A model generated the notes under the pieces. The model ran no database searches and was not told where the DNA came from. It saw only the letters and a program-made list of their open reading frames with translations. The translations under genes were made by a program, and so were the position numbers. A stretch of 63,740 bases of DNA, counting the filler, from Candidatus Fermentibacterota bacterium (lineage in GTDB: Bacteria; JAFGKV01), in assembly GCA_016928395.1 (NCBI GenBank). It is 4 parts of 4 records of this genome, joined end to end, with 100 filler letters (N's around TTAATTAATTAA, not from the genome) between each part and the next. Parts side by side here need not be neighbours in the genome. Positions count along the whole stretch, not along the records: positions 20,529 to 42,682 come from JAFGKV010000099.1; 3 more parts are not named here. The stretch is one strand, 5' to 3'. Shown piece by piece: positions 22,111 through 43,127 of the stretch (positions are counted from its first letter, which is position 1; each line of letters opens with the position of its first letter).

Positions 22111-22112
22111 TC

Positions 22113-22152: not shown

Positions 22153-22166
22153 CCTGGAGGTGTATC

Positions 22167-22358: not shown

Positions 22359-22359
22359 A

Positions 22360-26533: not shown

Positions 26534-26562
26534 CCCTGCCCCTTCGCCCTCCCTCGTCCTCC

Positions 26563-28325: not shown

Positions 28326-28379
28326 TGGAAGACTGGAAGGGTGGAAGGGTGGAGTGAAGGAAGAATGGATGAATGGAAG
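28322..28379. repeat. Purine-rich degenerate octamer repeat (GGAA-N2-TG type)
   Basis: aatgatgg aagactgg aagggtgg aagggtgg ...; same family at 47550 and 60445. Confidence 0.6.
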
Positions 28380-28408
28380 ACCGTGGGCAGCATAGGCGGC
28401 AAAGTCTC

Positions 28409-29134
28409 ATGCCGATAGCCTTGCTTCTTCTGGTGGCTGTCGCGCTGGGGGGCGCAGGCGTCGCGGGACCTACCCGGTCTGTCGCCTCCGCAAGCGACTC
28501 CTTGCGAGGATCGACGCCCCTGGGGGCCCTGGGCGCAAACGCAGACAGCGCCCGGTTTGCAGCCCTTACTCGCACCCTCGCCACAGGATGTCGGTGCCCC
28601 GGCGTTACCGATAGCGTCGACGTGACGGGAGATCCACTTCTCAACCCGGCACATTCCCTCCATGAAGGAATGCGTGACAGCCTCCGCGACGCGATGGACT
28701 GCTGGAAGGACGGAACGGGCTTCCACGACTGGTGCTGTGGGGACACGAGACCTGAAATCCTGCACAGCGTGGACCCGGCATACCCCGAGTCGCTCCGGCG
28801 AGGGGGGGCCAATGACACTGTCGTTGCCCTGTGTTTCGTGAATCGCGATGGCAGGGTGGCTCGGGTGGAGCGCAAACGGGGGCGACCCGAGTTGTACGAT
28901 GCGACATTCAAGGCGTTGTGCCAATGGAGCTTTAAGCCCTGCACGTGGGTCTGTGAGAATGGGGCTTCGTTTCCGGTGGGGGTTTGGGTGGCAGTGCCTT
29001 TCGTGTTTCTCGCGGACTCCCAGGAAGGCCATGCCTCCGGGGATCCCGGAAACACGGCGATTCGGGGCGATGCGCCCCCACTCAGGTCGGAGAAGGAGTT
29101 GTCCATTCCCTCCGAAGCGCGGGACAGCCCGTGA
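28409..29134 (+). CDS. Secreted protein with TonB C-terminal domain
   Basis: Signal peptide; PAYPESLRRGG, VNRDGRV, QWSFKP, VAVPFVF. Confidence 0.7.
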   Translation: MPIALLLLVAVALGGAGVAGPTRSVASASDSLRGSTPLGALGANADSARFAALTRTLATGCRCPGVTDSVDVTGDPLLNPAHSLHEGMRDSLRDAMDCWKDGTGFHDWCCGDTRPEILHSVDPAYPESLRRGGANDTVVALCFVNRDGRVARVERKRGRPELYDATFKALCQWSFKPCTWVCENGASFPVGVWVAVPFVFLADSQEGHASGDPGNTAIRGDAPPLRSEKELSIPSEARDSP

Positions 29135-29149
29135 GGAGAACGCGCTTTT

Positions 29150-29328
29150 CTCGGTGCGCTCGGGAGTTGTCAGTGATCAGCCGTCGGATGGCAGTTCTGA
29201 ACTCTGCGCTCCGACTTCCGTGTTCGCCATTCCGAACTCCGCACTCGACAGCTCATCCCCTCGCCCGTCTGGGAGAGGGCAGGGGTGAGGGCGCTTCGGC
29301 CTTCCTGCGCAGCAGGTTCTCCTCACTC
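29150..29328 (+). repeat. 179-bp direct repeat, copy 1 (contains CCCTCGCCC...GGGAGAGGG REP-like hairpin)
   Basis: Near-identical to 30807..30985. Confidence 0.9.
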
Positions 29329-29338
29329 GCGAGACACC

Positions 29339-29367
29339 TTGACGGATCCCGCTGGGTACTGTAAAAT
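29339..29367 (+). promoter_or_regulatory. Sigma70 promoter of TA module
   Basis: TTGACG-17-TAAAAT. Confidence 0.65.
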
Positions 29368-29394
29368 ACCTATAAAGCACTCAATGGGAGGAAG

Positions 29395-29676
29395 ATGATG
29401 ACCTATATTGCGGTCAAAGACCTGAAACAGGGCGGCGCGCTCTGGACGAAGCTGAACGAGGAGCGCGAGCTCGTGGTCACTCGGGATGGGCGTCCGTGCG
29501 CCATTCTCATCAGCGTCGATGGAGACGAGGTTGAGGATTCGCTGGCCGCGATCCGTCGTGCGCTGTTCTCAGCGGCGGTAGGGCGGGCTCGGCGCAGAGC
29601 GGAAGCCAACCCGCCCCCGGCGGACATAGTCGAACGGGCGGTCCGAGAGAGCAGAAGGTCGCGACGCTCATCATGA
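29395..29676 (+). CDS. Phd/YefM-like antitoxin
   Basis: IAVKDLK...LVVTRDGRPCAIL; stop overlaps the next start (ATGA). Confidence 0.8.
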   Translation: MMTYIAVKDLKQGGALWTKLNEERELVVTRDGRPCAILISVDGDEVEDSLAAIRRALFSAAVGRARRRAEANPPPADIVERAVRESRRSRRSS

Positions 29677-30101
29677 AGGCGGTCCTCGACACGAATGTGC
29701 TCGTGTCGGGCATGATCAACCCGGTCGGCGCGCCCGGCAGGCTGGTGGACATGGTTCGTGCCGGGGTGTTGCGGTTGGTGGTGGACGATCGCGTCCCGCG
29801 TGAGTACGCGGATGTGCTTCGTCGCCCCATGTTGCGGTCGTACTTCTCCTTGGCCGATGCCGAAGCGATCCTTGACTTCCTTCGACACGGCGCCGAGCCC
29901 GCGCTGGCCACGGTGTGTGTCAGCGGGCTGCCGGACCCGGATGACGCCCCGTTCCTTGAAGTCGCCCTCGCGTCCGGCGTCCCGCTCATCACGGGAAACA
30001 CGAGGCATTTCCCTTTGAATCGGCGCGCCGGGTGCACCGTCCTGACCGCGGCTGAGTTCGTGGCGCAGTACTGTCAAGCAGATGCTACTCCTGTCCCGTA
30101 A
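29673..30101 (+). CDS. PIN-domain toxin (PIN_3-like)
   Basis: VLDTNVLVSG, EY, PDPDDAPFLEVA, LITGNTRHFP. Confidence 0.88.
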   Translation: MKAVLDTNVLVSGMINPVGAPGRLVDMVRAGVLRLVVDDRVPREYADVLRRPMLRSYFSLADAEAILDFLRHGAEPALATVCVSGLPDPDDAPFLEVALASGVPLITGNTRHFPLNRRAGCTVLTAAEFVAQYCQADATPVP

Positions 30102-30191
30102 CCTCGCGCCGCGAGAGGTTCATAGCGCACGTTTCTCGGTCCGCGACCTCCCACTCTCGCAAAGGGGGATCGAGGAGGATTCATCCTTGAC

Positions 30192-30219
30192 TTGACATTA
30201 GTATCAATAATGATATCAT
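30192..30219 (+). promoter_or_regulatory. hicAB promoter and operator, probably leaderless
   Basis: TTGACA-16-TATCAT ending 5 bp before the ATG; palindrome TATCA-ATAA-TGATA. Confidence 0.65.
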
Positions 30220-30224
30220 AGGCC

Positions 30225-30476
30225 ATGAGATCTCTTGAGCGAATTCTGGAGGAGATGCGGGCAAACCCGACAGGCGTTCGGTTTGCCGAGCTGTGCCGCG
30301 TGTGTGATCACTACTTCGGCCCTGCCCGGCAACGGAGCTCCAGCCATCGAGTATACAGAACCCCGTGGCAGGGAGATCCTCGCGTCAACATCCAGAACTC
30401 ACGCGGCATGGCGAAGGCGTATCAGGTCCGCCAGGTCCTGCGGGCAGTTGATCGGTTGAGAGGTGAAGATGCGTAA
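30225..30476 (+). CDS. hicA: HicA-like toxin
   Basis: 83 aa, NPTGVRFAEL, SSSH motif, AKAYQVRQVL. Confidence 0.8.
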   Translation: MRSLERILEEMRANPTGVRFAELCRVCDHYFGPARQRSSSHRVYRTPWQGDPRVNIQNSRGMAKAYQVRQVLRAVDRLRGEDA

Positions 30477-30798
30477 GCAGAATGACCGCTACACGTATCG
30501 GGTCACGTGGTCCGAGGAAGACGGAGAGCATGTTGGTCTCTGCGCCGAGTTCCCGAGTCTGAGCTGGCTCGCGCCTACGCCCGAAGGGGCGCTTCGCGGT
30601 GTGCGGAGGATCGTGTCGGGCGTCTTGAGTGACATGGCGGCCCAGGGGGAGCCAATCCCCGAGCCGTTATCCTCTCGGCGATTCAGCGGTAAGTTTGTCG
30701 TGCGTATCCCTCCCGACATCCACCGGAAACTGGCGGTCGAGGCTGCCGAAGCCGGCGTCAGCCTGAACCGGCTCGCCAGCGCCAAGCTCTCCCAGTGA
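30469..30798 (+). CDS. hicB: HicB-family antitoxin with C-terminal RHH
   Basis: YRVTWSEED, EFPSLSW, FSGKFVVRIPPDIHRKL...GVSLN. Confidence 0.88.
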   Translation: MRKQNDRYTYRVTWSEEDGEHVGLCAEFPSLSWLAPTPEGALRGVRRIVSGVLSDMAAQGEPIPEPLSSRRFSGKFVVRIPPDIHRKLAVEAAEAGVSLNRLASAKLSQ

Positions 30799-30806
30799 TG
30801 GAATCC

Positions 30807-30985
30807 CTCGGTGCGCTCGGAAGTTGTCAGTGATCATCAGTCGGATGGCAGTTCTGAACTCTGCGCTCCGACTTCCGTGTTCGCCATTCCGAACTCCGCA
30901 CTCGACAGCCCATCCCCTCGCCCCCTTGGGAGAGGGCAGGGGTGAGGGCGCTTCGGCCTTCCTGCGCAGCAGGTTCTCCTCACTC
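30807..30985 (+). repeat. 179-bp direct repeat, copy 2
   Basis: Near-identical to 29150..29328. Confidence 0.9.
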
Positions 30986-31176
30986 CTATCTCCTCACTCG
31001 GAAGACTGCCTGCCGTCGACTGGAGGCTGCCGACTGCGGCCCTACTCCTATCTCCTCATTCGGAAGACAACTGCCGCTCCCTCGCCCTGGGAGAGGGCAG
31101 GGCCTAGCCCGGCACAGAAGGCCTGCATGATCGGATTCGCCTTGCAATTTCACTACTCGCTGGTGAGATTGTCACC

Positions 31177-32406
31177 ATGATTGCGAGATCTATCGGGTCC
31201 TCCATCCACCGCGCACTTGCGGATACACCCGTCGTCCTGCTGAACGGCGCGCGGCAAACCGGCAAGACCACCCTGGCTCAAGCCATTGCCGACGAGACCA
31301 ATGCTCAGTACCTGACTATGGATGACGCCGCCACGCTCGCATCGGCGTGCGGCGACCCTGTCGGCTTCGTCAGCAACCTGCCTCGGTGCGTAGTTCTCGA
31401 CGAGGTCCAGAAGGCGCCCGACCTGTTCCCTGCACTCAAGCGTGCGGTGGACAAGGACCGCCTCCCAGGTCGGTTTTTGCTCACCGGCTCAGCTAATGTG
31501 ATGACGCTGCCTCATCTTTCGGAGTCGCTGGCTGGGCGCATGGAGGTCATTCCTCTCTATCCTTTCTCAGCCGGCGAACTGGCAGGCATACAGGAAGGAT
31601 TCCTGAAGCGCTTATTCGCAGGCGGAATGCCTGCCGTGCAGGAGCCGGCGATGCGCGAGGATATCCCCGGGCGAGTGGTCCGCGGCGGGTATCCGGAAGC
31701 GATCCAACGCACGGATACCGACCGCCGGGCGGCGTGGTTCGCCTCGTACGTCACGACAATCCTTCAGAGAGACGTGCGCGATCTAGCGCGGGTGGAGGGA
31801 CTCCATGCGTTGCCGAACCTGCTGAGACTACTGGCGGCCCGCGCGTCCGGCCTGCTCAACCTGGCCGACATCAGCCGCGACGCCAGTGTTCCGTACACGA
31901 CGCTGACCCGCTACCTGGCCTTGCTTGAGACAGTGTTCCTGGTCCATCGGTTGCCGGCATGGTCGCCAAACTTGGGCACGCGCCTCGTCAAGGCACCCAA
32001 GCTGCACCTCGTTGATTCCGGGCTGGCCTGCCACCTGATCGGCGCCGATGCCCATCGGCTCTCTGCGGACAGGCAGTTGCTGGGACGAATGCTGGAAACG
32101 TTCGTCGTAGGTGAACTTCGCAAGCAGCTTTCATGGACCGATCCCCAGACGAGACTTCACCACTTCCGCACCTCTGCCGGCTCCGAAGTGGACATCGCCT
32201 TAGAGAGAGCCGATGGGACTGTGGTCGCCCTCGAGGTCAAGGCCGGCGCCACGGTGGCCAGTAGGGACTTCGCCGCGCTCAAGACGTTGCGAGATAAAAT
32301 CGAACGCCGGTTTCAGGCTGGAGTGGTGCTCTACACGGGCGACCAGGTTCTTCCCTTCGGCGACAAGCTCTGGCTCGCGCCGATCCCGGCTCTGTGGATG
32401 CCGTAA
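31177..32406 (+). CDS. AAA+ ATPase with DUF4143 (PD-(D/E)xK-like) C-terminus
   Basis: GARQTGKT, LDEVQ, LLTGSA, ESLAGR, GGYPE, DSGL, EVD...LEVK. Confidence 0.9.
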   Translation: MIARSIGSSIHRALADTPVVLLNGARQTGKTTLAQAIADETNAQYLTMDDAATLASACGDPVGFVSNLPRCVVLDEVQKAPDLFPALKRAVDKDRLPGRFLLTGSANVMTLPHLSESLAGRMEVIPLYPFSAGELAGIQEGFLKRLFAGGMPAVQEPAMREDIPGRVVRGGYPEAIQRTDTDRRAAWFASYVTTILQRDVRDLARVEGLHALPNLLRLLAARASGLLNLADISRDASVPYTTLTRYLALLETVFLVHRLPAWSPNLGTRLVKAPKLHLVDSGLACHLIGADAHRLSADRQLLGRMLETFVVGELRKQLSWTDPQTRLHHFRTSAGSEVDIALERADGTVVALEVKAGATVASRDFAALKTLRDKIERRFQAGVVLYTGDQVLPFGDKLWLAPIPALWMP

Positions 32407-32813
32407 CAGACCGCACCATGAGGCCCCCTCGCTTCGGCCGTCCTGCGCAGTTTACTCCAGCACCGGGGATACGGTGCGGACTCTCAGCGCTCCGACTTCC
32501 GAGCTCCGCGCGCGACAGGATGCCGACTGCCGACGTCCCCCTGTTCCCTGTAGCCTGTGCCCTGTCACCTCCCCGCGAAGCGGCCACCGTGATCCTCTCC
32601 CGAGCGCAGACATCTGGTCAGTGGTGAGACGAAGATTATACATTAAAGATTTGACCCCACGCCCGAAGGCGAGAATCCTCCCACTTTCGCAAAGGGGGAT
32701 TGAGGGGGATTTCTATCCCTGTGGGAACGACTTCAGTCGTGATACTGTCCTCCGTGGTGCCCGGCGGGTACACTGCGGTCGAGCCCAGCTCGACACTGCC
32801 CGCCGTTGATCAC

Positions 32814-34244
32814 ATGAGCGACCGAGATCTCCCCGAAGGATGGGCCCGCGCGACTCTTGGGGCACTTGCCCAGCGGATCACCAAGGGGTCGACTCCAACC
32901 TCGTACGGCTTCGAGTACCAGACGTCCGGGATTCGGTTTGTCAAGGTGGAGAACCTCCGAGATGGTCGCATCGACCACTCCTCCCTGCGGCACTTCATCT
33001 CAGACGAGGCGCACCAAGCTCAATCGCGGTCAATCCTGCGTGAAGGGGATATCCTCTTCTCGATTGCCGGAACTCTCGGGCAGACGTGTGAGGTTCACCC
33101 GCAGGATCTCCCAGCCAATACCAATCAGGCGTTGGCGATAGTCCGTGGTACAGGCAGCTCTCTCGACGCGCGCTTCCTGCGCTTCGTCCTGTCTTCCGAA
33201 ATAGCTCGGGGGGTTGTTGCAGAGCAGGCTCGCGGTGCGGGTATGAATAACATATCTCTGGCAGATGTGGCTGCGATTGAGCTTCCCCTTCCCCCTCTTG
33301 CTGAACAGCGGCGGATTGTGGAGAAGGTTGAGGAGCTGCTGGCACATGTGAACGCAGCCCGCGACAGCCTCGCCAAGATCCCTTCCATCCTCAAACGCTT
33401 CCGCCAATCCATCCTCTCCTCCGCCTGCTCCGGCCGCCTCACCGAAGACTGGAGGGAGGCTGATAACGCGGACGACATACCCTCCGGCTGGGTCTGGGTG
33501 ACACCGACCGATCTGGCTGAGCCTGTGCCGAATGCTCTGACCATCGGGCCCTTTGGGAGCAACCTAAAGGTATCTGATTATCAAGAGGCCGGCGTGCCCT
33601 TGGTGTTCGTCCGTGACATCCGCGCGGAGGCGTTTGGGGGACCCATGACCCGGTTCATCAGTCGGGAGAAGGCCCGCGAGCTGTCTTCGCACATCGTTCG
33701 TCCTGGCGATCTGCTGCTTACCAAGATGGGTGAACCTCCTGGTGATACCGCCGTTTATCCAGCGGGCAGGCCCGATGCAGTGATTACGGCTGACTGCATC
33801 AAACTCACTCCCCGACGCGAGGTAGCGACGGGAGCCTATCTCAGGTTCTGTTTCCGAGCTGAACCGGCGCGTGCGCAGATCATCGAACAGACGATGGGGG
33901 TGGCTCAGCAGAAGCTGAGCCTCGCCCGCTTCCGACAAGTCCGCCTGCCCCTTCCCCCGCTTGCCGAGCAGCATGAGATCGTGCGACGGGTGGAGGCGCT
34001 GTTTGCGGTCGTGGACGCGATCGAGAATAGGGTGGCGCAGGCATCCGCCCGCGCGGATCGGTTGACGCAATCCATCCTCGCCAAGGCATTCCGCGGTGAC
34101 CTCGTCCCCACCGAAGCCTCCCTCGCCCGTGCCTCCTCCCGCCCCTACGAATCCGCGGCGGAGCTTCTGGCTCGGATGCAATCAGAACATAGAACCCGGA
34201 TGTCATCGGCACCCCCAAGCCATGACAAGTCGCTTCTATCATGA
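32814..34244 (+). CDS. hsdS: Type I R-M specificity subunit
   Basis: LPEGW start, two TRDs, duplicated LPLPPLAEQ.RIV/EIV conserved regions, QSILAKAFRGDL. Confidence 0.93.
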   Translation: MSDRDLPEGWARATLGALAQRITKGSTPTSYGFEYQTSGIRFVKVENLRDGRIDHSSLRHFISDEAHQAQSRSILREGDILFSIAGTLGQTCEVHPQDLPANTNQALAIVRGTGSSLDARFLRFVLSSEIARGVVAEQARGAGMNNISLADVAAIELPLPPLAEQRRIVEKVEELLAHVNAARDSLAKIPSILKRFRQSILSSACSGRLTEDWREADNADDIPSGWVWVTPTDLAEPVPNALTIGPFGSNLKVSDYQEAGVPLVFVRDIRAEAFGGPMTRFISREKARELSSHIVRPGDLLLTKMGEPPGDTAVYPAGRPDAVITADCIKLTPRREVATGAYLRFCFRAEPARAQIIEQTMGVAQQKLSLARFRQVRLPLPPLAEQHEIVRRVEALFAVVDAIENRVAQASARADRLTQSILAKAFRGDLVPTEASLARASSRPYESAAELLARMQSEHRTRMSSAPPSHDKSLLS

Positions 34245-35116
34245 TGTGCTTGAACGGGAACCAGTACAGGCTCTGCCTGCTGGATACCAATGCCCTGAGC
34301 GAATTGCTGATGAATCCCAACACTTGGCTTAACTACATTGACACCAGGTTTGGCCTCTCGGGCACGATCTTGACCTACTCCACATTCACTCTGGGCGAAA
34401 TCGTCTTTCGGCCGGAGATCCTCGATAGATACACCGAGCTGTTCTCTGACTTCCCGTCGGCGGTTATGGACGGGTACGAGACAATCTTCGAGAAAGAAGT
34501 CCAATGCTACCGATCGAAGGAACGACCGAATCCTCTGTTGGTCTTCCCGTCGGCGCAGCGAGAACCTCGACTCTCGCCGCAAGAGTGCCTCCGAGAGCTC
34601 ATCGCTCAGGCCAAGATCAGGGAGCACGCATCTCGCTGGAAAGAGGGTTGTGGTTCTGTCCTGGAGGGCATCCTCGAGCTGAAGCGCAACTATCCCCCCA
34701 AGGGCGCCTCCTATACGACGAGGGAGATCGAGCTTTTCAACGATATAGCGAGCATTCACCAGATCGGGTTGCGGAACATGGCTTTCGCCAGATCGGTGAC
34801 CGACTCAGGGGAGGCGATTGACCTGGGGCACTTTCCATCCGTAGTGATGACCACCTATGCTGTCTTCTACAAGTTCTACCCTGACCATCGGAAGCCTCAG
34901 GAATCGGACGTCTTCGATCTTGTCATATCCTCATCGTTTCCGTACGCAGACTATGTCATCACGGAGGGGAACCTGGCTACGATCCTGAGGACCGTGCAGC
35001 GCAGGCATGGCCTGTTCCTCGATGTGGAGGCGATCACTACGAAGGACGTCAAACGTGAGATAGCCGGATCCAGCAAGTCCTCACGAGCCCATAGGGCTCA
35101 GCAGTTTTCTGGGTAA
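34241..35116 (+). CDS. PIN-like domain protein of unknown function
   Basis: LLDTNAL N-terminus, SDVFD...YADYVITE acidic C-terminal motif; start overlaps the hsdS stop. Confidence 0.6.
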   Translation: MMCLNGNQYRLCLLDTNALSELLMNPNTWLNYIDTRFGLSGTILTYSTFTLGEIVFRPEILDRYTELFSDFPSAVMDGYETIFEKEVQCYRSKERPNPLLVFPSAQREPRLSPQECLRELIAQAKIREHASRWKEGCGSVLEGILELKRNYPPKGASYTTREIELFNDIASIHQIGLRNMAFARSVTDSGEAIDLGHFPSVVMTTYAVFYKFYPDHRKPQESDVFDLVISSSFPYADYVITEGNLATILRTVQRRHGLFLDVEAITTKDVKREIAGSSKSSRAHRAQQFSG

Positions 35117-35177
35117 AGAGTGCGAACCAAGGAGAGGTCAACGCTTTCCGCAGTGAGACGCCTGGCTCCTCGACGAT

Positions 35178-35261
35178 CATCCGCTCGCAAGGACCGGTTG
35201 ACGCTCCCCATCCCGCCCCTACGAATCCGCCGAGGAGTTGTTGACTCGGATCCAGCCGGAA
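35178..35261 (+). repeat. hsdS 3'-end copy 2 (internally deleted)
   Basis: Matches hsdS ...gatcggttgacg... and ...cgcccctacgaatccgc...cggat with the AKAFRGDL core missing. Confidence 0.75.
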
Positions 35262-35562
35262 CACGCCATCGCCAGGGCGTCCCGTCGGCACAAGCGTGGC
35301 GCTCCTCCTCCGACTTCTTGACTGCCCGACAACAGCATCCTTCCTTCGCCTTGTCTTGTTTCGACAATCACCTTTACCATGGGGCAGAGATGGCCGCGAT
35401 CGGATATCGCGAATACCGACCAGAACCGAGACGCCGCAGGGCGACTCTGCTGCCGTCGCGCGATCCTGGTCGTCTTTGCTTGGCGCAATCCTACGAGCAA
35501 TCGCAGACCAGTGGCCGAACCGACGAATTGGAACTTGACACAGACTTTAGGTATATGTAAAG

Positions 35563-36042
35563 ATGGCTGCCTCTGGAAAGCGAGAGACCCGCACCCGGTG
35601 GCGCGTTGAGCCGATCGCGGGTCTGCGATCGAGCATGCGTCGAGCAGTGGTCATGCTCGTGGCTGAGCCTGCGGACAAGTTTGCGAATGCCAAGGCCTCC
35701 TTGGATGCCGCCGACGTCGGATCGCGGAGAGGGATGAGCGGCAGCTTCGAGCTATGGATCGGTGGGTACGACAATGTTCGAACTCGACACCACCCATGGG
35801 ACAAGAGCGAATTCCGAGGAGCATACACGACGTGCCACGTCTTCAAGCAACCAGGATGGAGGATCTACGGCTTCAAGTGTCACCCTGCTTGGGCCGTTCG
35901 TTTTGAGCTCTGCGTGCTCGTGCATTCGGCCTCCAAGCATGAGCATGAGACCGATGAGAAGATCCTGAGAAAGGTGACCGCCTTCTCCTCACGGGTTGAT
36001 GTGATCGAGGCAGTGCAGGCGCTTGAGGAGTCCTCGATCTGA
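35563..36042 (+). CDS. Putative RelE/HigB-like toxin of a TAC module
   Basis: 159 aa, WRIYGF followed by LVH..SK pattern; position upstream of HTH and SecB-like genes; TTGACA at 35535. Confidence 0.5.
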   Translation: MAASGKRETRTRWRVEPIAGLRSSMRRAVVMLVAEPADKFANAKASLDAADVGSRRGMSGSFELWIGGYDNVRTRHHPWDKSEFRGAYTTCHVFKQPGWRIYGFKCHPAWAVRFELCVLVHSASKHEHETDEKILRKVTAFSSRVDVIEAVQALEESSI

Positions 36043-36056
36043 AAGGTAGGAGATCC

Positions 36057-36614
36057 ATGAAACTCAACGGCCGTCATTGGACCGCGGAGAATGCGGCGAG
36101 CTTCCGTTTTGCGGTTGCCGATAACTTCGTCACGCAAGTGCAGATGCGATTGGATGAACTAGGACTCCAGCAGTCCCATCTCGCGGAGCGGCTCGGTATC
36201 CATGAGTCGCGAGTGTCACAGGTGCTGAACAACCCTGGAAACCTAACCCTTGGGACGATGGTTCGATTGGTCAGAGCTCTCGAGATGAAGCTGGCGGCGG
36301 TGGCGTACGACGACGGCGACGCTGGCAACGAGCGGGGTCCGATCCATCCCGAGGTATTCCGCCTCTGCTGGGAGGCCCTCGGCAAACCTGCTGACCGCTG
36401 GGAGTTCGAGGGTGCAGTGTCCGCCAGCGCGGCCGTATGGCATCAGCCGTGGGATCTCAAGGATCTCGCTGACTTCGTCGAGCTGACCACTACGCCAGTG
36501 ATGGCAAGGCCGTTTCCGATTTCGGCCGACTCAGAGATCGGTCTCGCCTGGCAGTGGGCTGAATCGCGCTACGAGACTCAGACTGAGGGAATGCACGACC
36601 GCTTGGCGGCATAG
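36057..36614 (+). CDS. XRE/HigA-like HTH antitoxin with long C-terminal extension
   Basis: LQQSHLAERLGIHESRVSQVLN..GNLTLGTMVRL; C-terminus ends in LAA. Confidence 0.75.
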   Translation: MKLNGRHWTAENAASFRFAVADNFVTQVQMRLDELGLQQSHLAERLGIHESRVSQVLNNPGNLTLGTMVRLVRALEMKLAAVAYDDGDAGNERGPIHPEVFRLCWEALGKPADRWEFEGAVSASAAVWHQPWDLKDLADFVELTTTPVMARPFPISADSEIGLAWQWAESRYETQTEGMHDRLAA

Positions 36615-36634
36615 GATTCCCAAGGAGAGAACGC

Positions 36635-37243
36635 ATGATCAAAGTACGGGCCGATTCCAAGGAGATCGCAGCAGCTCATCTGGTGGCGCAGGTGGCTCAG
36701 TTGGAGTCTATAGATATCGTCCAGGTCACGATGTCCAGTCGTCTCCATAGACTCGCCCGGTCGGCACAGCAGGAACTCAATCTAAGAGCACGGCACTCGG
36801 TGGGAGACTACCTGATCGTGGAACCCCAGCGCCTGGTTGTCGAAGTCGGCGCAGAGCTTGCGGTCGAACGCACGAGCCCATCCTCACAGCCCGCTGATTC
36901 GAAGCCCGAGTCGATCCCCGACCCTGAAGGGCCGGACGTGAGCATACGCGTCATCGCAGCTCTCAGCTATCGTTTGCCACCACCACCAATTCCTGACGAA
37001 GTTGTGAAGAAGGGGTTGCCCGCGTTCGCGAGACTCAATGCCGTCTACAACGCGTGGCCGTTCATACGTCAGGAGATACACCACCTCGCCATGGGGATAG
37101 GCCTTCCCGTCGTCGTGCCGCTACTGCAGATTGTGCCAACTGGCGAGCAGAAGAGCACGCACATGGTCGCCGAAGGCAAGAAGGCTGCAACGCGCAAACC
37201 CCGGGAGGGGGGCGGAAAGCGAGCCATCGCTCGTGGGGAGTGA
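36635..37243 (+). CDS. SecB-like chaperone
   Basis: FARLNAVYNAWPFIRQEIHHLAMGIGLPVVVPLL matches the SecB C-terminal helix signature; AAGGAG RBS. Confidence 0.7.
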   Translation: MIKVRADSKEIAAAHLVAQVAQLESIDIVQVTMSSRLHRLARSAQQELNLRARHSVGDYLIVEPQRLVVEVGAELAVERTSPSSQPADSKPESIPDPEGPDVSIRVIAALSYRLPPPPIPDEVVKKGLPAFARLNAVYNAWPFIRQEIHHLAMGIGLPVVVPLLQIVPTGEQKSTHMVAEGKKAATRKPREGGGKRAIARGE

Positions 37244-37277
37244 CATAAGCCGTGGAGTGTTGCACGGCCACCATCGC

Positions 37278-37455
37278 GGACGCGATCGAGAAGAGGGTGG
37301 CGCAAGCATCCGCTCGCGCGGATCGACTGACGCAATCCATCTTGGCCAAAGCCTTCCGTGGTGACCTCGTCCCCACTGAAGCCTCCCTCGCCCGCTACGC
37401 CTCCAGCCCCTACGAATCCGCTGAGGAATTGCTGGCGCGGATCCAGGCTGAATGA
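37278..37455 (+). repeat. hsdS 3'-end copy 3
   Basis: Encodes DAIEKRVAQASARADRLTQSILAKAFRGDLVPTEASLAR...YESAEELLARIQAE*. Confidence 0.92.
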
Positions 37456-37941
37456 CCCGTTGTCAGAACGCCCCGTCGCTGGATAGCCGCGCAGACGTAC
37501 CTTCGTTTCCCCTTGAGGCGGGCCGCCACGTGAGCCGAGTTGGACACGTCAACGAGGCCTCACTCGGTTGCCCACCAACGGGGGCTCCCCGTAAGGCGGC
37601 ACGTTGCTCCGTAGACGGGGCTCACGCGTACGGCCGGATGGCGCGCTTGGTGCTGCGGGTTTCCCGCAAAGCAAGTTCCTTGACCGCCCGACGACCTGCT
37701 CCTTCCTTCGTGTTGTCTGTTTCCACAATCAGGTCAGGCGTGGAGGCAGACATGAGCACGACTGGATTTCAGGTAAGCTCGTGGTAGTTGGTCGCTTGTC
37801 CGCTAGCATCGTGGCACGGAGGGGCCGCACTCGATTCGGAGCTCTGGAATCCGTCAAGAGAACGCCCTTGCCGTTTCTCTTCTATGCTGGATAGCCGGGG
37901 CGACGTGGTCTGGAATGGCCTCGGCCCAAAGGGAGATATGG

Positions 37942-38673
37942 ATGACGAGGATACCAGTGGTGGCAGCCCTCTTCGTGTGCATGGCGAGCCCGCTTTCGTG
38001 GTGTGAGAGCATCCGATCTGAGGAGAGCCCTCAATCAACCCGAGGCTGGGGCACGATGGCCGTTGTCGCGCTCTCAGATCTCGTGGATCTTGCCACTGTG
38101 GTTGGGGGAGGATGGCACAGCCTCGGTCTGAGGGCCGACGGGTCCATCGTCGCGTGGGGTGCCAATGACTACGGGCAGTGCGACGTTCCATCCCCCAACG
38201 CCGGCTTTGTCGCGGTGGCGGCAGGCGCCCTGCACAGCATGGGCTTGAAGCGAGACGGCTCGATCGTCGCATGGGGATTCAATGGATTCATGCAGTGCGA
38301 CGTGCCATCTCCTAACGCCGACTTCGTCGCAATTGCGGCAGGCGCCCTGCACAGCATGGGCCTCAGGAGAGACGGTTCAGTGGCTGCATGGAGGCATGGC
38401 AAGTACGGGCAGTGCGATGTTCCGTCTCCCAACGCTGATTTCATCGCAGTTGCGGCGGGTCACCAGCATAGCCTCGGCCTGAAGGCCGACGGGTCCATCG
38501 TCGCATGGGGTGCCAATGACTACGGGCAGTGCGACGTTCCATCCCCCACCGCCGATTTCATCGCCGTGGCTGGAGGAGGGAAGCACAGCCTCGGCCTGAA
38601 GGCTGACGGGTCCATCGTCGCGTGGGGACAGTGCGCGGTGCCCGACCCGACGAGGGAGCTTGGGGCACGTTGA
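37942..38673 (+). CDS. Secreted RCC1/BLIP-II repeat protein, probably C-terminally truncated
   Basis: Signal peptide; about 4.5 tandem 39-aa repeats HSLGLKADGSIVAWG.N.YGQCDVPSPN; ends abruptly. Confidence 0.8.
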   Translation: MTRIPVVAALFVCMASPLSWCESIRSEESPQSTRGWGTMAVVALSDLVDLATVVGGGWHSLGLRADGSIVAWGANDYGQCDVPSPNAGFVAVAAGALHSMGLKRDGSIVAWGFNGFMQCDVPSPNADFVAIAAGALHSMGLRRDGSVAAWRHGKYGQCDVPSPNADFIAVAAGHQHSLGLKADGSIVAWGANDYGQCDVPSPTADFIAVAGGGKHSLGLKADGSIVAWGQCAVPDPTRELGAR

Positions 38674-38821
38674 TTCCGAGAGTGCATGACTGCCAGGGGA
38701 GCGGGCCCACTGAAGCACCATACTCCGGCTGACCAGGGCAACCTGGGGGACGTTGATTCCGAAGGTGCGCAGGGGGCAGGAGTAGCGGTCTTCTGAAACA
38801 TGAGCTCCGGCTCGATGCTCG

Positions 38822-39029
38822 AGCATCTACTCGTGCCGATCGGTTGACGCAATCCATCCTCGCCAAAGCGTTCCGCGGCGACCTCGTCCCCACCGAAGCC
38901 GAGCGCGCCCGCGCCGCCTCCCGCCCCTACGAATCCGCCGCGGATCTGCTGGCACGGATCCAGGCCGAGCGCTCCGTCAGAGCGTCCGGTCGACGCAGGG
39001 GAGGATCGAGACCCCGACCGAACGAGTAG
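38822..39029 (+). repeat. hsdS 3'-end copy 4 with natural-looking basic C-terminal tail
   Basis: RADRLTQSILAKAFRGDLVPTEAERARAASRPYESAADLLARIQAERSVRASGRRRGG...*. Confidence 0.9.
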
Positions 39030-39110
39030 CCGCTCCGCCCTGCTTCGCCCTTCACCCTACGCGTCATACAAGGCGTCGTGACCTCGAGAGAGACCGCTCT
39101 CGTATTGAAG

Positions 39111-39159
39111 ACTTATCAAACTAGTAGTACTTGACAAAATGATAAGTTATGCCTAGTGT
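39111..39159 (+). promoter_or_regulatory. Promoter with operator inverted repeat
   Basis: TTGACA-17-TAGTGT; ACTTATCA (39111) and TGATAAGT (39140) flank the -35. Confidence 0.65.
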
Positions 39160-39188
39160 GCGGTGTGGAATGGATGAAAGGAGCCACC

Positions 39189-40337
39189 ATGAGAGGAGCT
39201 ATGGCGCTCAATCTCCGACGGTTTCGGAAGGTGCGACAACTTACGCAGCAGGCTCTGGCTGATGCCGCCGGAATAAGCAGGGTTGCTTATAGGAACATCG
39301 AAACCGGAGCCTCCGAGGCGAAGGCCTCAACGCTGAACGCGTTGGCGCAAGCATTGCGGGTTTCCGTGTTCGATCTGCTGGAGGAAGCCCCGACCATGCA
39401 GAGCCTTCGCTTCCGTTCTCTCAAGTCGCTGACGGCCCAGGAGCGAGCCGAGAGAGATCAGATCGCCGTCGAAGTCGCGCGGTGGCTCCGGGATTACAAC
39501 GAACTGGAGGACATGCTCGACCAGCGGATCGCTTATCGCCTGGATGAGATTGATGCTCGTGGTTCCAGTCCGGAAGAGGTGGCAGCGACTGCGCGCGAGC
39601 ACCTGTCGTCGCCCGGCGGGCCGACGCGGCCGGACATCTGTGGTCTACTTGAGCAGGCAGGTGTCAAGGTGCGCCTATCCCCATCACGCATGCGCGCGTT
39701 CTTCGGGCTCTCCGTGGGACCTCCTGACGGCGGACCAGCAATAGCGGTGAACACGGCAGAAGAGATTCCCGTCGAACGACAGATCTTCACGGCTGCCCAT
39801 GAGCTGGGGCATCTCCTACTTCACGGCGACTCCTACCGAACCGACCGTGTTGACGAGGATCCCCTCCAGGAGAAGGAAGCAAACCGGTTCGCGGCCCATT
39901 TCCTGATGCCCCCCGGGGAGTTCAGCGCTGAGTGGGAGAAGAATCGCGGTCTGCACTGGATCGACGCTGTGTTGCGGACGAAGCGTCAATTCGGCGTGAG
40001 CTACAAGACCGTCCTACGACGACTTGTCGAGGGGGGCCTCGCCGATGACCGGATCTATCCCCACTTCGTCGATGCCTATGCCACCCGATACGGAAAGCGA
40101 CTCGCCTACAGAGAAGAACCTGAAGCACCTGTGACGGTGACCAAAGGTGAAGAACCGGTCGCTTTGGAGTGGGTCGACTTCCACGAAGATCGACTGAGCC
40201 AGCTCGTCCATGACGCGCTGGACAAGGGCTTGATCAGCATCGGGAGGGCCGCGGAGATCTTGAACGTGAGCCTCGCAATGATGCGAGAGCGGATCAGCGA
40301 GTGGGGTCTGTTTGGATGCCCGATCCTCAAGCAGTAG
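39189..40337 (+). CDS. XRE HTH fused to ImmA/IrrE-family metallopeptidase
   Basis: N-terminal HTH LTQQALA...YRNIETG; ERQIFTAAHELGHLLLH (HExxH); EKEANRFAAHFLMP. Confidence 0.9.
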   Translation: MRGAMALNLRRFRKVRQLTQQALADAAGISRVAYRNIETGASEAKASTLNALAQALRVSVFDLLEEAPTMQSLRFRSLKSLTAQERAERDQIAVEVARWLRDYNELEDMLDQRIAYRLDEIDARGSSPEEVAATAREHLSSPGGPTRPDICGLLEQAGVKVRLSPSRMRAFFGLSVGPPDGGPAIAVNTAEEIPVERQIFTAAHELGHLLLHGDSYRTDRVDEDPLQEKEANRFAAHFLMPPGEFSAEWEKNRGLHWIDAVLRTKRQFGVSYKTVLRRLVEGGLADDRIYPHFVDAYATRYGKRLAYREEPEAPVTVTKGEEPVALEWVDFHEDRLSQLVHDALDKGLISIGRAAEILNVSLAMMRERISEWGLFGCPILKQ

Positions 40338-40831
40338 TCATCGCTGACGCGAACGTACTCATCGACTATGCGGTCACAAGTCCCGATCTGCTTGGCCTCA
40401 TCTCGACGCGACTATGGGTCGTTCACGTACCGCGGCCCGTGTTCGACGAGGTTGACCAACTCGATGAGCACGATGCGGCTCGGCTCTCGCTGGCGATCGT
40501 GGAGCCTAGTCTGGGCCAACTCGTAGAGGCCGGAACACGAGGTGGCCGCCTGTCCAGGCAGGACAGGCTGTGCTTCGTCATGGCTCGCGACAATCGCTGG
40601 CGTTGCTGGACGAACGATACGGGACTTAGGAAGCTGTGCCGAGACGCGCAGATACGGACGTACTGGGGCCTTGAACCCATGATACTCCTTTGCCAGCAGG
40701 GATACCTGCAGGTCGATGAAGCCACCAGAACGGCACGCATGATCCACGACATCAACCGGTATCATCTCAGCGGTGAGATCCTGGAGCGTTTCCTGGGGAA
40801 ACTGGATCAGATCGAGGGGGAGCGGGGATGA
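40316..40831 (+). CDS. PIN-domain protein, partner of the XRE-ImmA gene
   Basis: IADANVLIDY, VFDEV, LSRQD, TNDTGLR; overlaps the upstream gene. Confidence 0.78.
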   Translation: MPDPQAVVIADANVLIDYAVTSPDLLGLISTRLWVVHVPRPVFDEVDQLDEHDAARLSLAIVEPSLGQLVEAGTRGGRLSRQDRLCFVMARDNRWRCWTNDTGLRKLCRDAQIRTYWGLEPMILLCQQGYLQVDEATRTARMIHDINRYHLSGEILERFLGKLDQIEGERG

Positions 40832-41330
40832 ACGAGAAGAAGCCGCCAGCCACCTCCAGGCATCAGAACTCTCCGCTGGGCATCCGCCGGAGCCCGAAGC
40901 GGAGTCGGCCGGAGCGACAAATTCAACACGGACGTCGCTCACCATGTGGCCGTGCGCAAGTTCCGGCGCTCAACCAAGGGGAGAGCTGGCTAGGGTCGTG
41001 TATTGCTTTTTGACATATGACGATCGCCCCTCTCGTCGCGCGCTGTGCGAGTCGTCCGACCGGTGAAGCAGAATCGGCTGTCGGCCAGAGTGAGGAGTCA
41101 GGAGATAGGAGTAAGGAGTCTGAGGTTGTTGGTTCTCAGTGGACTTACCCCGAAACTGCGGACACATGGGGGGAGATAGTGGCACAAATGACTGCAGCTG
41201 ACCTCTCGACCGTAGGATCGGATGACTGCAAGAATCTGAAAGCAGCTAGTAAGAGGCCAACCGAAGATGGCCCAAAGGGGGAAGACCGCGTTGCCCTACC
41301 CCCGCCCGCATCACGCAGATAGAAGAAGCA

Positions 41331-42682
41331 TTACTCCTCGTGGTGGAGTCGCTCCTCCTCCATCTCCAACCGCTCCTGCTCCCTCAACTCCGGATACAGG
41401 TATGAATCCCTCTCCGCCGAGGCGCAGTAGTCCAGCCGCTTCTCCTCGAAACCCCTGCGCTTGGCTACCACGCGGTAGTCGAACGTTCCGTTGGAACCCC
41501 CGCCATTCCGCTCTACCACGTCGAATCCCGTGAGCCCCTTCTTCACCGCGACCCCTTCGCATGACTCGTCGTGCAACTCCACGAACACCTTCATCGGATT
41601 CGCCGCATCGATGGTCACCGTCTCCAGGAAGAGTGGATCCAGCTCGACATGGCATCGCCCATCGACCAACTGCCCCTCCCCGAAGTCCTCGAACCAGTTC
41701 TCGGGGCTCTCCTGGCAGTACATCAGGGTCGGACCCCTGGATGTCTGCACCACGCAGCTCTTGGTCCCCGAACCGGCAAGACCGCCAATGAAGTAGACTC
41801 CGTAGCCGCCGGGGGAATCACTCCGACCCACGACGCCGCAGGGGTCGCCCGTAGTGGCGGAGGCATGGGCGAATACGCCCGTTCCGATGGCGGAGGAGCT
41901 CGTGAAGTCGCCGCCACAGGCGGAGGCAGAGCCGGTCACGCCGCAGCCGTTGGGGGAGGCGCTCATGAACCGGCCGCCATAGGTGACGCCCGAGGTGGCG
42001 GTAGCCTCCCCATAGACGCCTATACCTTGGGTGGAGGCGCTCGTGCCTCGCACGCCTGGGGAATTGCCCGCGGTACTTGAGTTGGTGCCCGAGATGATGG
42101 GATTCGCGTTGGAGGCGGTGAGAGCAAGGGGCACCGCGACGTGCAGCGTCGCATTACCGGAGGTGGCGCCGCCGGTGAGCCCCGTGCCCGCAATGACCGC
42201 GGTGATGTCACCCATCCCGGAACCGGAAAGGGTCCCATCCACCGTCAGATTCCCGGTGACCCGTGCATTGCCCTGGAAGTAGCCTGCGAAGCCAGCGGGG
42301 GAGACGGCTAGGCCGTACACCCCATAGGTCGTTCCCGATGTGGCGGCGGCATAGCCATGCACGCCACGGCCATCGGACGAGTTGCTCTGGCCCCAGATGC
42401 CGTAGGTCGTCCCCGATGTGGCGGCGGCCCAGCCGTAGACAGCTCGACCCGCGGTGGAAACGCTCGTGAAGTAGCCACCGTAGGCAGCACCCGATGCGGC
42501 GGTGGCGCCCCCATACACCCCTCGGCCAGCGGTGGAGTCGCTCGTGCCGTACACGCCGGAGGTAGTGCCCGATGTGGCGAGGGCCCGGCCGTAGACACCG
42601 CGGCCATCGGTGGAGGCGCTCGTGAAGTAGCCGCCCCAGGCAGCGCCCGATGTGGCGGTGGCGCCCCCGTACACCCCGCGGC
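41331..42682 (-). CDS. Gly/Ser/Thr-rich repeat surface or fibre-like protein, 3' part, cut by gap
   Basis: Repeats of about 24 aa G(V/I)YG.A.ATSG..YGG.F; GDITAV.AGTGLTGG; C-terminal ESPENWFEDFG...FDYRVVAKR domain. Confidence 0.75.
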
Positions 42683-42782
42683 NNNNNNNNNNNNNNNNNN
42701 NNNNNNNNNNNNNNNNNNNNNNNNNNTTAATTAATTAANNNNNNNNNNNNNNNNNNNNNNNNNNNNNNNNNNNNNNNNNNNN
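42683..42782. other. Artificial contig-join linker
   Basis: N44-TTAATTAATTAA-N44. Confidence 0.97.
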
Positions 42783-42967: not shown

Positions 42968-43044
42968 TGGTACGCCTGCCGAGACTTGAACTCGGAACCC
43001 TCGGATTAGAAGTCCGATGCTCTATCCGGTTGAGCTACAGGCGC
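42968..43044 (-). tRNA. tRNA-Arg (anticodon TCT)
   Basis: Reverse complement GCGCCTGTAGCTCAACCGGATAGAGC-A-TCGGA-CTTCTAA-TCCGA-...GTTCAAGT...CAGGCGT-ACCA folds as a cloverleaf. Confidence 0.96.
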
Positions 43045-43049
43045 GAGGG

Positions 43050-43127
<78 letters not shown>

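Follow-up and report, generated by a model that had tools for sequence, protein, structure and literature searches.

Downstream of an intact restriction-specificity gene (hsdS) lie three orphan copies of its conserved 3' end, each separating a different toxin-antitoxin (TA) or defence module, and similar arrays in other microbes suggest that this conserved end is a recombination handle by which defence islands grow and swap parts. The window analysed here is a stretch of 63,740 nucleotides from Candidatus Fermentibacterota bacterium (GCA_016928395.1), made of four joined parts, in which the locus belongs to JAFGKV010000099.1. A sequence-only reading of this DNA had pointed out four copies of the hsdS end in the same orientation, and this observation is confirmed. 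The features of the locus are as follows.

23684-26533 (+), hsdR, Type I restriction subunit of the EcoEI_R_C type (Pfam EcoEI_R_C 3.5e-30, ResIII 3e-29, HSDR_N).
26883-28325 (+), hsdM (N6_Mtase 3.9e-59, HsdM_N); the ORF opens at 26772, but the likely start is the M of MTDIVQKLWGF, inferred from the HsdM N-terminus of another locus of this Type I family (L007).
28373-32406 (+), cargo embedded between hsdM and hsdS: TonB_C-like (28373-29134); Phd/VapC (29395-30101); HicA-like/HicB (30225-30798), of which the HicA-like gene has no family hit and is named by position only; DUF4143 AAA ATPase, PADLOC PDC-S01 (31177-32406). A 179-nt direct repeat (29150-29328 / 30807-30985, 96% identical) brackets the two TA pairs.
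32814-34244 (+), intact hsdS, probably starting at the ATG at 32814: TRD1, central conserved region (33285-33470), TRD2 and terminal conserved region, TCR (33948-34169); tail copy c1 is 34009-34187 (Methylase_S; NCBIfam specificity subunit 1.4e-71; hits of a profile HMM of the tail at 5e-22 and 3e-28).
34241-35116 (+), cargo 1, 291-aa protein of an uncharacterised family without Pfam, NCBIfam or PADLOC hit; a PIN-like fold is only a structural lead (Atlas structure, TM 0.67-0.69 on the PIN side).
35178-35287 (+), tail remnant c2, with the TCR core deleted, the frame shifted and a basic C-terminal tail retained.
35635-37243 (+), cargo 2, three-gene module: unknown 135-aa protein (35635-36042); HigA-like HTH (36057-36614); SecB-like protein (36635-37243). 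It is a candidate toxin-antitoxin-chaperone (TAC) system.
37274-37478 (+), tail remnant c3, which lacks the LPPLAEQ..IV block, may begin at about 37249 and has a premature stop after LLARIQAE.
37915-38673 (+), cargo 3, RCC1-repeat protein (RCC1_2 6.5e-37; four 117-nt repeats) with an N-terminus that resembles a signal peptide as judged by eye.
38817-38992 (+), tail remnant c4, which may begin at 38778 with a 3-codon deletion and has a complete basic C-terminal tail.
39156-40831 (+), cargo 4, RosmerTA-like pair: XRE-HTH plus M78 peptidase antitoxin (39156-40337; PADLOC RmrA 1.9e-35, Peptidase_M78 4.6e-19) and PIN-domain protein (about 40316-40831).

The c2 copy has lost about 60 nt, which removes the QSILAKAFRGDLV core, and was recovered by tblastn (E 4e-4) and by blastn (81% over 53 nt, E 2e-7), while c3 and c4 were detected with the tail HMM at 2e-17 and 3e-12, respectively. 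The codon differences in the conserved core listed by the sequence-only reading are correct. Over 49 aligned codons, c1, c3 and c4 are 82-84% identical (82-86% for the copies as a whole), with differences at codon positions 1/2/3 of 7/2/15, 4/2/17 and 7/4/15 (binomial P 3e-3, 8e-5 and 9e-3), an NG86 dN/dS of 0.17-0.20 and a dS of about 0.5. The copies therefore come from different hsdS alleles that were once under selection, and not from local duplication. With regard to the basic tail attributed to c4, it is indeed kept (…ERSVRASGRRRGGSRPRPNE*), but c2 keeps one as well and c3 does so in degenerate form; the hsdS stop overlaps the ATG of the next gene (ATGA). The tails are closer to each other than to almost any tail in 127 other loci, which reach at most 78% over alignments longer than 100 nt, apart from c4 and the tail of locus L068 at 84%, and this points to donors from related lineages. 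A search with 105 full-length HsdS queries hit only c3 and c4 in 34245-42680 and 28326-32813, without TRD, central-region, hsdM or hsdR remains.

The cargo identities proposed from the sequence hold to different degrees. The RCC1 repeats are confirmed, as is the XRE-M78 gene, whose partner is a PIN protein: 7 of 29 homologues carry PF01850 and 11 carry PF11848. In the triad, the HTH protein (HTH_3 1.5e-8) is HigA-like but below cut-off (TIGR02607, 1e-7), the SecB-like assignment is an Atlas lead only, and the supposed toxin has no family hit and only 1 homologue.

The same architecture occurs elsewhere. Among 96 other loci of this Type I family with a full hsdS, it was found in 3: L007 has two intact tandem hsdS genes plus 2 remnants, L062 has 2 remnants and L079 has 1. 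A further locus, L057, has two tails without a full hsdS. In a sample of 401 Thermodesulfobacteriota genomes, 46 of which had a match, genome G638 has hsdS plus 3 remnants and genome G721 has hsdS plus 1. Arrays are nevertheless uncommon, with 0 of 8 viral-contig loci and none seen in 401 Acidobacteriota genomes, in a search that scored only 14 candidates per genome. All 12 remnants downstream of a full hsdS (6 loci) are on its strand, and every one starts inside the TCR (tail-HMM positions 5-45), with none keeping the LPPLAEQ block or any TRD2 sequence. However, the 5' limits of the remnants are fuzzy, as c3 and c4 may extend 25-40 nt further, so the apparent clustering of boundaries is not secure.

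Comparison of related genomes (G638, G721, G807, G442 and G793) shows differences in tail number and cargo, with synteny breakpoints that fall on the TCR core or its end. Between G638 and G721, the hsdS 3' half is 85.6% identical and the similarity stops 13 nt after the TCR, whereas a distal 588-nt block that includes the last remnant is 95% identical and stops at the TCR end of that remnant. Everything between differs: G638 has an NsnB-like ATPase, HEC-01A/B and a zeta-like gene, with two extra tails, while G721 has DarT plus an ADP-ribosylglycohydrolase. Furthermore, the functional hsdS tail of G807 (…IKKELGNEVK) matches, from the core onward, the remnant of G721, so that in this other lineage the tail type of a remnant is found attached to a functional hsdS in a related genome; the G721 remnant is chimeric between two tail types. 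Solo tails in G442, in G793 and in contig C178 of G807 sit at the border between a variable upstream region and a conserved downstream flank, and in the C178 contig homology with G638 begins at the core.

We favour, with moderate confidence and as only somewhat more likely than not, a reading in which the locus is a Type I R-M operon (hsdR-hsdM-…-hsdS) that has grown into a defence and TA island, the three orphan tails being scars, and re-usable homology anchors, of successive recombination events in the TCR. In this view, the TCR, and above all its 40-55-nt core coding for QSILAKAFRG(D/E)LVP, is the only stretch shared at DNA level by otherwise unrelated hsdS alleles, and DNA from a related Type I locus would pair there, carrying a new hsdS end and whatever defence or TA genes lay downstream of it, with its far end joined either illegitimately or through a second tail. 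The result would be an intact hsdS with a new 3' end, then the new cargo, then the previous tail cut inside the TCR, then the previous cargo, and repetition would give an array with the youngest module next to hsdS. The tails would remain usable as homology arms for swapping, deleting or permuting modules, addictive TA cargo would slow loss by tail-tail deletion, and no dedicated recombinase would be needed, in a recombinase-free accretion process and not an integron. The analysis itself establishes the anatomy, the origin of the tails from selected alleles, the recurrence in other loci, the co-orientation, the truncation inside the TCR and the mosaic synteny with breakpoints at the TCR in a related set of genomes. 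The order of events, the recombination pathway (RecA-type or homology-facilitated illegitimate recombination, Campbell-type circles or break repair) and the continued function of hsdS are inferred. Accretion at the window's own locus is argued by analogy, as no close relative was found and only the source run holds this locus. Moreover, homologous recombination alone does not explain how the first truncated tail arises, since one illegitimate joint per new boundary is needed, without donor sequences to show microhomology, and tails that are only about 80-86% identical, with longest exact matches of 16-29 nt, are marginal for RecA-type exchange. The short gap of 10-60 nt between a cargo stop codon and the next remnant, seen at c2, c3, L079, the first remnant (r1) of L007, and r1 and r3 of G638, would also fit defined element ends.

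Several known systems share parts of this organisation. The pneumococcal tvr (SpnIV) locus (PMC6265443) is a closer precedent than the sequence-only reading allowed when it set the array apart from hsdS shufflons: it is a Type I locus with hsdS-derived direct repeats in one orientation, segments between the repeats leave as circles and re-enter at another repeat, a TA pair inside the movable segment stabilises it, and the long repeats also recombine, weakly, without the recombinase and without RecA. In tvr, however, the shuffled units are TRD-coding pieces that change specificity and a dedicated recombinase (TvrR) is encoded in the locus, whereas here the units are unrelated defence or TA genes, no TRD copies exist and no recombinase was found. 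Type I R-M loci often carry nested defence or TA genes, as catalogued under 'guilt by embedding' (bioRxiv 10.1101/2024.01.29.577857) and exemplified by PrrC in a Type IC locus (PMC12707154), and several cargo genes here match PADLOC candidates defined that way (PDC-S01, HEC-01A/B, PDC-M64). Those works catalogue the embedded genes; the main text of the preprint contains no occurrence of 'recombination', 'remnant' or 'hotspot', and orphan hsdS tails as scars or anchors are not mentioned in the parts of these works consulted, which did not include the preprint's supplements. The conserved regions of hsdS act as crossover points between alleles in TRD exchange (domain movement), as in natural recombination in Xylella (bioRxiv 10.1101/2022.09.01.506293). 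In homology-facilitated illegitimate recombination, one homologous anchor can carry adjacent foreign DNA in. Known cases swap TRDs within the gene, while here the terminal region appears to carry non-hsd cargo and leaves duplicated tails. Integrative islands that restore the 3' end of their target gene, and their tandem accretion (tRNA-gene islands, cis-mobilisable elements of streptococci), likewise have direct repeats of a gene's 3' end flanking each unit, an intact gene and the oldest copy farthest from it, but they use a tyrosine or serine integrase and a fixed short core, whereas here no integrase was found and remnant limits vary. Integrons are one-directional arrays of promoter-poor cassettes at a fixed platform, rich in TA and defence genes; here no IntI, attI or attC was seen, cargo orientation is not fixed, and the repeat is a coding gene end, not a folded site.

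The sequence-only reading had proposed that modules of hsdS tail plus cargo are inserted one after another into the hsdS C-terminus, restoring the gene each time, in an integron-like array, and this interpretation is partly supported. That each copy was once the end of a selected hsdS holds, as does the variation in tail number and cargo at orthologous loci of related genomes. The conditions it had named as refuting it were not borne out, as the copies have a synonymous bias, cargo variation exists, although in another lineage, and no sign of misassembly was seen. That each insertion restored hsdS remains an inference. A platform with its own machinery is not supported, and site-specific accretion of small integrative units (hsdS 3' end plus cargo) by a recombinase encoded elsewhere, akin to tRNA- or gene-3'-end islands, tandem accretion of elements that have lost their integrase or an integron with the integrase in trans, seems unlikely. 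It would account for the co-oriented direct repeats flanking each module, the truncation inside the TCR, the short gaps before several remnants, the purifying selection expected on element-borne tails that become the working gene end, and breakpoints that recur at the 5' edge of the core (L057 r2, L062 r3, L007 r2, C178 of G807 and the left end of the c2 deletion). However, no integrase or recombinase was found in the ORFs scanned between 17 and 43 kb of the window, in the cargo ORFs scanned in five other arrays (L007, L057, L062, L079 and G638; G721 partly), not every small ORF being included, or among the 25 commonest Pfam families of 150 ORFs downstream of hsdS elsewhere. In addition, remnant 5' limits spread over HMM positions 5-45 rather than one site, L062 and L007 carry reversed cargo genes, one right-hand junction in G721 lies inside a zeta-like gene and not at a tail, and no inverted-repeat or attC-like structure was seen by eye.

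Passive decay of several complete tandem hsdS genes, destroyed by unrelated insertions and deletions with only the 3' ends remaining by chance or through detection bias, is also unlikely. Tandem intact genes exist in L007, orphan truncated hsdS with a complete TCR plus part of TRD2 exist in L011, L111 and L116, and a frameshifted, decaying Type I locus was seen in G171. Yet none of the 12 array remnants keeps any TRD2 or the first conserved block, although TRD2 is several times longer than the part of the TCR in which the cuts fall, and the strict co-orientation, the exchange of cargo around shared remnants and the chimeric remnant of G721 also speak against it. It is very unlikely that the tails are kept because they work, for example as short HsdS C-terminal peptides that bind HsdM, or as RNA or terminator elements for the cargo operons. 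Although c3, c4, L062 r2 and G638 r2 lie in small ORFs with possible starts (67, 61, 79 and 112 aa) and a dN/dS below 1 cannot date the selection, the starts are non-ATG and not conserved, c2 is frameshifted and lacks the core, c3 has a premature stop, L062 r3 is a 39-nt fragment and no terminator-like site was found at the tails. Also very unlikely is a collapsed or chimeric assembly of hsdS paralogues from several strains. The window is a scaffold with an N gap (42683-42782) from a sediment metagenome, Logan contigs gave no cover for 34210-37157 and one odd joint (33410 to 38850) was reported. On the other hand, the copies share at most 29 nt of exact sequence, below the usual assembly word sizes, an independent Logan contig (38519-41586, 1 mismatch) spans c4 and its cargo and another covers 37516-38184, the same architecture occurs in independent assemblies, including large contigs (L079, and contig C3 of G721 of 130 kb), and composition is even across modules.

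The window carries a chromosomal Type I restriction-modification (R-M) operon in which hsdR, hsdM and hsdS are all present, as supported by Pfam and NCBIfam hits. The hsdS gene shows the TRD1-CR-TRD2-CR organisation, with both conserved regions recovered by a profile HMM of hsdS tails. A pst/phoR operon and two tRNA genes lie nearby, and the nearest named PstA comes from a Candidatus Eisenbacteria MAG, at 79% identity. The features of the locus are as follows.

22017-22749: a VapB/PIN pair and a cupin gene directly upstream of hsdR, so that TA modules flank the operon on both sides
23684-26533: hsdR
26552-26858: tandem REP-like GC-rich repeats (periods 87 and 114 nt) between hsdR and hsdM, which inflate the predicted hsdM ORF
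26883-28325: hsdM, the start at 26883 being probable
28326-32813: stretch between hsdM and hsdS, with about 4.4 kb of embedded genes, namely a TonB_C-like protein, Phd/VapC, a HicA-like gene with HicB, and a DUF4143 ATPase that matches PADLOC PDC-S01 at 9e-169
29150-29328 and 30807-30985: a 179-nt non-coding, REP-like direct repeat (96% identical) bracketing the Phd/VapC and HicA-like/HicB pairs
30147-30181 and 32677-32711: a 35-nt repeat (91% identical), the second copy just upstream of hsdS
32814-34244: intact hsdS, with a likely ATG start at 32814, a central conserved region (CCR) at 33285-33470 and a terminal conserved region (TCR) at 33948-34169; its end is tail copy c1
35178-35287: tail copy c2, same strand as hsdS
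37274-37478: tail copy c3, same strand as hsdS
38654-38685 and 38737-38768: a 32-nt stretch spanning the stop region of an RCC1-repeat gene and repeated (81% identical) just before c4, possibly a junction-associated duplication
38817-38992: tail copy c4, same strand as hsdS
41331-42674 (-): a 447-aa ORF built of 78-nt (26-aa) Gly/Thr/Ser-rich repeats, with no family hit, abutting the scaffold gap
42683-42782: scaffold gap (N)
42968-43127 (-): tRNA-Arg and tRNA-Pro

The sequence-only reading had described direct repeats of the hsdS 3' end separating unrelated cargo genes, and this observation held. Copy c2 has lost about 60 nt, including the QSILAKAFRGDLV core, and is frameshifted. Over 49 aligned codons, c1, c3 and c4 are 82-84% identical, and most differences fall at third codon positions (15 of 24, 17 of 23 and 15 of 26; P 3e-3, 8e-5 and 9e-3), with a dN/dS of 0.17-0.20 and a dS of about 0.5. 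The copies are therefore ends of different hsdS alleles that evolved as coding sequence and not a recent local duplication, although 49 codons do not allow the period of selection to be dated. Furthermore, c2, c3 and c4 share about 25 more nt of a basic C-terminal extension, which c1 lacks, as it runs instead into the next gene through an ATGA stop/start overlap.

Each tail is followed by different cargo. After c1 lies a 291-aa protein of an uncharacterised family, for which a PIN-like fold is only a structural lead. After c2 there is a three-gene module made up of an unknown 135-aa protein, a HigA-like HTH protein whose hit falls below cut-off, and a SecB-like protein; the latter assignment rests on an Atlas lead (features 0.94, structure TM 0.56/0.65) with no Pfam SecB hit, and the module, which would be a candidate toxin-antitoxin-chaperone (TAC) system, has no identified toxin. 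After c3 lies the RCC1-repeat protein, and after c4 an HTH plus M78 peptidase protein that was hit by 14 RmrA models (best 1.9e-35), next to a PIN protein. This last pair fits RosmerTA in having an RmrA-type antitoxin with an adjacent putative toxin gene, albeit the partner is a PIN protein and not an RmrT model, and its toxicity is inferred. Single-sequence AF2 models of the 171/176-aa PIN protein and of the 135-aa protein were unusable (pLDDT 42 and 36, respectively) and offered no basis for a fold search. The cargo proteins of the window have no homologues in 127 tail-bearing loci, apart from the DUF4143 ATPase, which has one in L116 (one of these loci), and the 291-aa protein has none in plasmids or viral contigs. 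The PDC-S01, RmrA and PDC-M64 matches place known or candidate defence families within or beside the R-M genes, as in a defence island.

When 105 full-length HsdS proteins from other loci were used as queries against 34245-42680 and 28326-32813, only c3 and c4 were hit, with no TRD, CCR, hsdM or hsdR debris. Neither was any integrase or recombinase family found in the ORFs scanned from 17 to 43 kb, which did not include every small ORF. GC and GC3 do not separate the modules, no promoter-like sites were found and no terminators lie at the tails.

Misassembly is unlikely, since the copies share at most 29 nt of exact sequence and an independent contig from the run spans 38519-41586 with one mismatch, although the contigs examined did not cover the remainder of the array. 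Among the roughly 56% of the run's contigs that were examined there was no cover for 34210-37157, which is no evidence either way. One contig (depth 14.6, 42 nt on the short side, no shared letters) joins the central conserved 'QSIL' region of hsdS at 33410 to the 'QSIL' of c4 at 38850; it could represent a half-hsdS deletion variant or the hsdS of another organism, and remains unexplained. A second joint, from 30998 to 41686 (side 21), lies in REP-like repeats and was dismissed. Contig depth at the 35-nt repeat upstream of hsdS is about 288, against about 16 nearby, which makes it a high-copy element in the metagenome.

To establish whether this architecture is a one-off, public collections were scanned with an alignment of the tails and every locus was then searched with the tail HMM, which was built from 70 conserved-region sequences and included central regions. 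Of 96 other loci with a full hsdS, 59 of which have at least 3 kb of downstream sequence, three carry extra tails downstream on the same strand: L007, from a Methanoregulaceae MAG, has two intact tandem hsdS genes plus two remnants, L062 has two remnants and L079 has one. A further locus, L057, has two tails but no full hsdS on the contig. Eight viral-contig loci were ordinary hsd loci without arrays, and a tail search in plasmids returned 52 records, only 3 of them with two places. In a sample of 401 Acidobacteriota genomes, 21 had a match and no arrays were seen, at limited sensitivity; closer inspection of two of these genomes, G003 and G171, gave an HsdM_N look-alike, an orphan tail and a frameshifted locus. 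Conversely, a sample of 401 Thermodesulfobacteriota genomes, 46 with a match, yielded two more arrays, in the genomes G638 (hsdS plus three remnants, a second four-copy array) and G721 (hsdS plus one remnant). In the order that holds G638, represented by 17 species genomes of which 6 had a match, five carry orphan tails.

The cargo in these arrays is again mostly TA or defence, and includes MNT-HEPN, an AbiEii-like nucleotidyltransferase, HigB-like with HTH-M78, AAA_15/21 ATPases, an NsnB-like gene, HEC-01A/B (3e-184 and 5.5e-76), a zeta-like kinase and DarT with an ADP-ribosylglycohydrolase, together with a reversed alpha/beta hydrolase in L062 and a reversed methylase-like gene in L007. All 12 remnants that lie downstream of a full hsdS, in six loci, are on its strand and start inside the TCR, at HMM positions 5 to 45, and none retains the LPPLAEQ block or any TRD2. 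These limits are approximate, as c3 and c4 can be aligned 25-40 nt further upstream. Resident tail and remnant are 71-87% identical everywhere. Several remnants start or break at the 5' edge of the core, namely L057 r2, L062 r3 (a bare 39-nt core fragment), L007 r2, a solo tail on contig C178 of the related genome G807 (G807:C178) and the left end of the c2 deletion. Moreover, the stop codon of the upstream cargo gene often lies only 10-60 nt before the remnant, as seen for c2, c3, L079, L007 r1, and G638 r1 and r3.

Whether tail number and cargo vary between relatives had been proposed beforehand as a test of the accretion idea, and it was examined in the G638 order, since a search of sequencing runs found the window's own stretch only in the probable source run. 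G638 and G721 hold orthologous loci. Their hsdS 3' halves are 85.6% identical, and the similarity ends 13 nt after the TCR, while a distal block of 588 nt, comprising the end of a zeta-like gene, an 85-aa ORF and the last remnant, is 95% identical and ends at that remnant's TCR end. Everything between the two anchors is unrelated, with three defence modules separated by two extra tails in G638, and DarT, a glycohydrolase and others in G721. The right-hand limit in G721 lies inside the zeta-like gene, and that joint is therefore illegitimate rather than tail-to-tail. G807 has orthologous hsdR and hsdM (86-92%) with other TRDs, and its functional tail, from the core onward ('…IKKELGNEVK…'), is of the type found in the G721 remnant. 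The 5' part of the latter is instead 95% like G638 r3, and the G721 remnant is thus a chimeric tail. Solo tails in G807:C178 and in two other genomes of this set, G442 and G793, sit between a variable upstream region and a conserved downstream flank, and in G807:C178 homology to G638 begins at the core. Tails are therefore places where synteny between relatives starts and stops.

These facts fit recombination anchored in the TCR. The TCR is the only DNA shared by different hsdS alleles, and its core reaches 90-93% identity over about 55 nt even between loci that are otherwise at most 78% identical. A new hsdS end plus its downstream genes would be recombined in, leaving the old tail truncated with its own cargo behind it, and the tails would then serve as arms for later replacement, deletion or permutation. 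The anatomy, the origin of the tails as coding ends of different alleles, their recurrence and co-orientation, and the synteny breaks at tails in the G638 order are shown by the analysis, whereas the mechanism, the polarity, the restoration of hsdS at each insertion and the toxicity of the cargo are inferred, and accretion at the window's own locus is argued by analogy. The pathway could be one homologous anchor with an illegitimate far joint, single crossover of a circle, double crossover with a donor that already has two tails, or break repair. Homologous exchange alone does not explain the birth of a first truncated tail. The 179-nt repeat around Phd/VapC and HicAB shows the same repeat-cargo-repeat signature with a non-coding repeat.

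The sequence-only reading had interpreted the locus as an integron-like array in which 'tail plus cargo' modules are inserted one after another into the hsdS end, and this interpretation was partly supported. Direct repeats of the 3' end of the target gene do flank the modules and hsdS has an open frame through a complete TCR, as would be expected of an integrative element that targets a gene's 3' end, including tandem accretion. The tight spacing between cargo and remnant and the recurrent breaks at the core edge also fit such a model, which remains possible, although unlikely, with a recombinase acting in trans. However, no integrase or recombinase was found among the ORFs scanned, and thus neither the adjacent IntI gene of an integron nor the integrase of an integrative element was identified; the limits of the remnants vary instead of marking a fixed crossover core; and cargo orientation is not fixed, with reversed genes in L062 and L007. 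The repeat itself is a coding gene end. A phase-variable hsdS shufflon of the ivr or tvr type is not supported either, since no silent or alternative TRD-coding copies were hit by the HsdS queries and no locus-encoded recombinase was found among the ORFs scanned. Passive decay of tandem hsdS genes, which also seems unlikely, does not explain why TRD2 is never retained in arrays.

Embedding of defence genes in Type I loci is already known (preprint 10.1101/2024.01.29.577857; review PMC12707154), although the main text of the preprint does not contain the words 'recombination', 'remnant' or 'hotspot'. The pneumococcal tvr locus shows repeat-guided excision and reintegration with a TA pair, but it shuffles TRDs and encodes a recombinase (PMC6265443). 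Full-text literature searches, which did not extend to subscription journals and supplements, found no account of orphan hsdS tails punctuating cargo.

Defence genes are known to cluster in and around R-M loci, and how they get there is mostly unexplained when no mobile-element genes are present. Orphan hsdS tails give a readable record of past acquisitions, including their order, allele of origin and junctions, and point to a mechanism in which a short, widely conserved coding segment serves as a portable homology arm. If this is right, the tails can be used to delimit cargo modules and to find new defence systems, a change of R-M specificity through new hsdS ends would be linked to the gain of new defences in a single event, and the frequent presence of TA modules would be explained by their stabilising repeat-flanked segments. 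A more far-reaching reading, which is not excluded but appears improbable on present evidence, is that the TCR, through its nearly invariant core of about 50 nt, works as a universal landing pad shared across bacterial phyla and archaea. Units of truncated tail plus defence or TA cargo would spread horizontally between Type I R-M loci by recombination at this pad, restoring hsdS each time without a recombinase of their own, and could be excised, permuted or replaced through tail-tail exchange. This would be a homology-anchored functional analogue of an integron and would explain how genes become embedded in R-M loci.

Further features of tails were noted in other loci. Four remnants in three genomes, at 6620-6990 and 5540-5900 of L139 (G638:C298), 13990-14360 of L140 and 3190-3560 of L142, share a divergent TCR type ('…VRDKDFIRRL…AIEFAA…'); two of them lie in one array, at 76% identity, and a remnant with the same 5' limit has therefore been propagated next to different cargo. 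Orphan hsdS ends far from any full hsdS occur in the loci L011, L111, L116, L129 and L046, some of which keep a complete TCR plus part of TRD2, and in L011 the neighbour is a 3135-aa gene on the other strand. Lastly, the two intact tandem hsdS genes of the archaeal locus L007 (8711-11694) are joined by an ATGA overlap, the same stop/start overlap as between hsdS and the 291-aa gene in the window.
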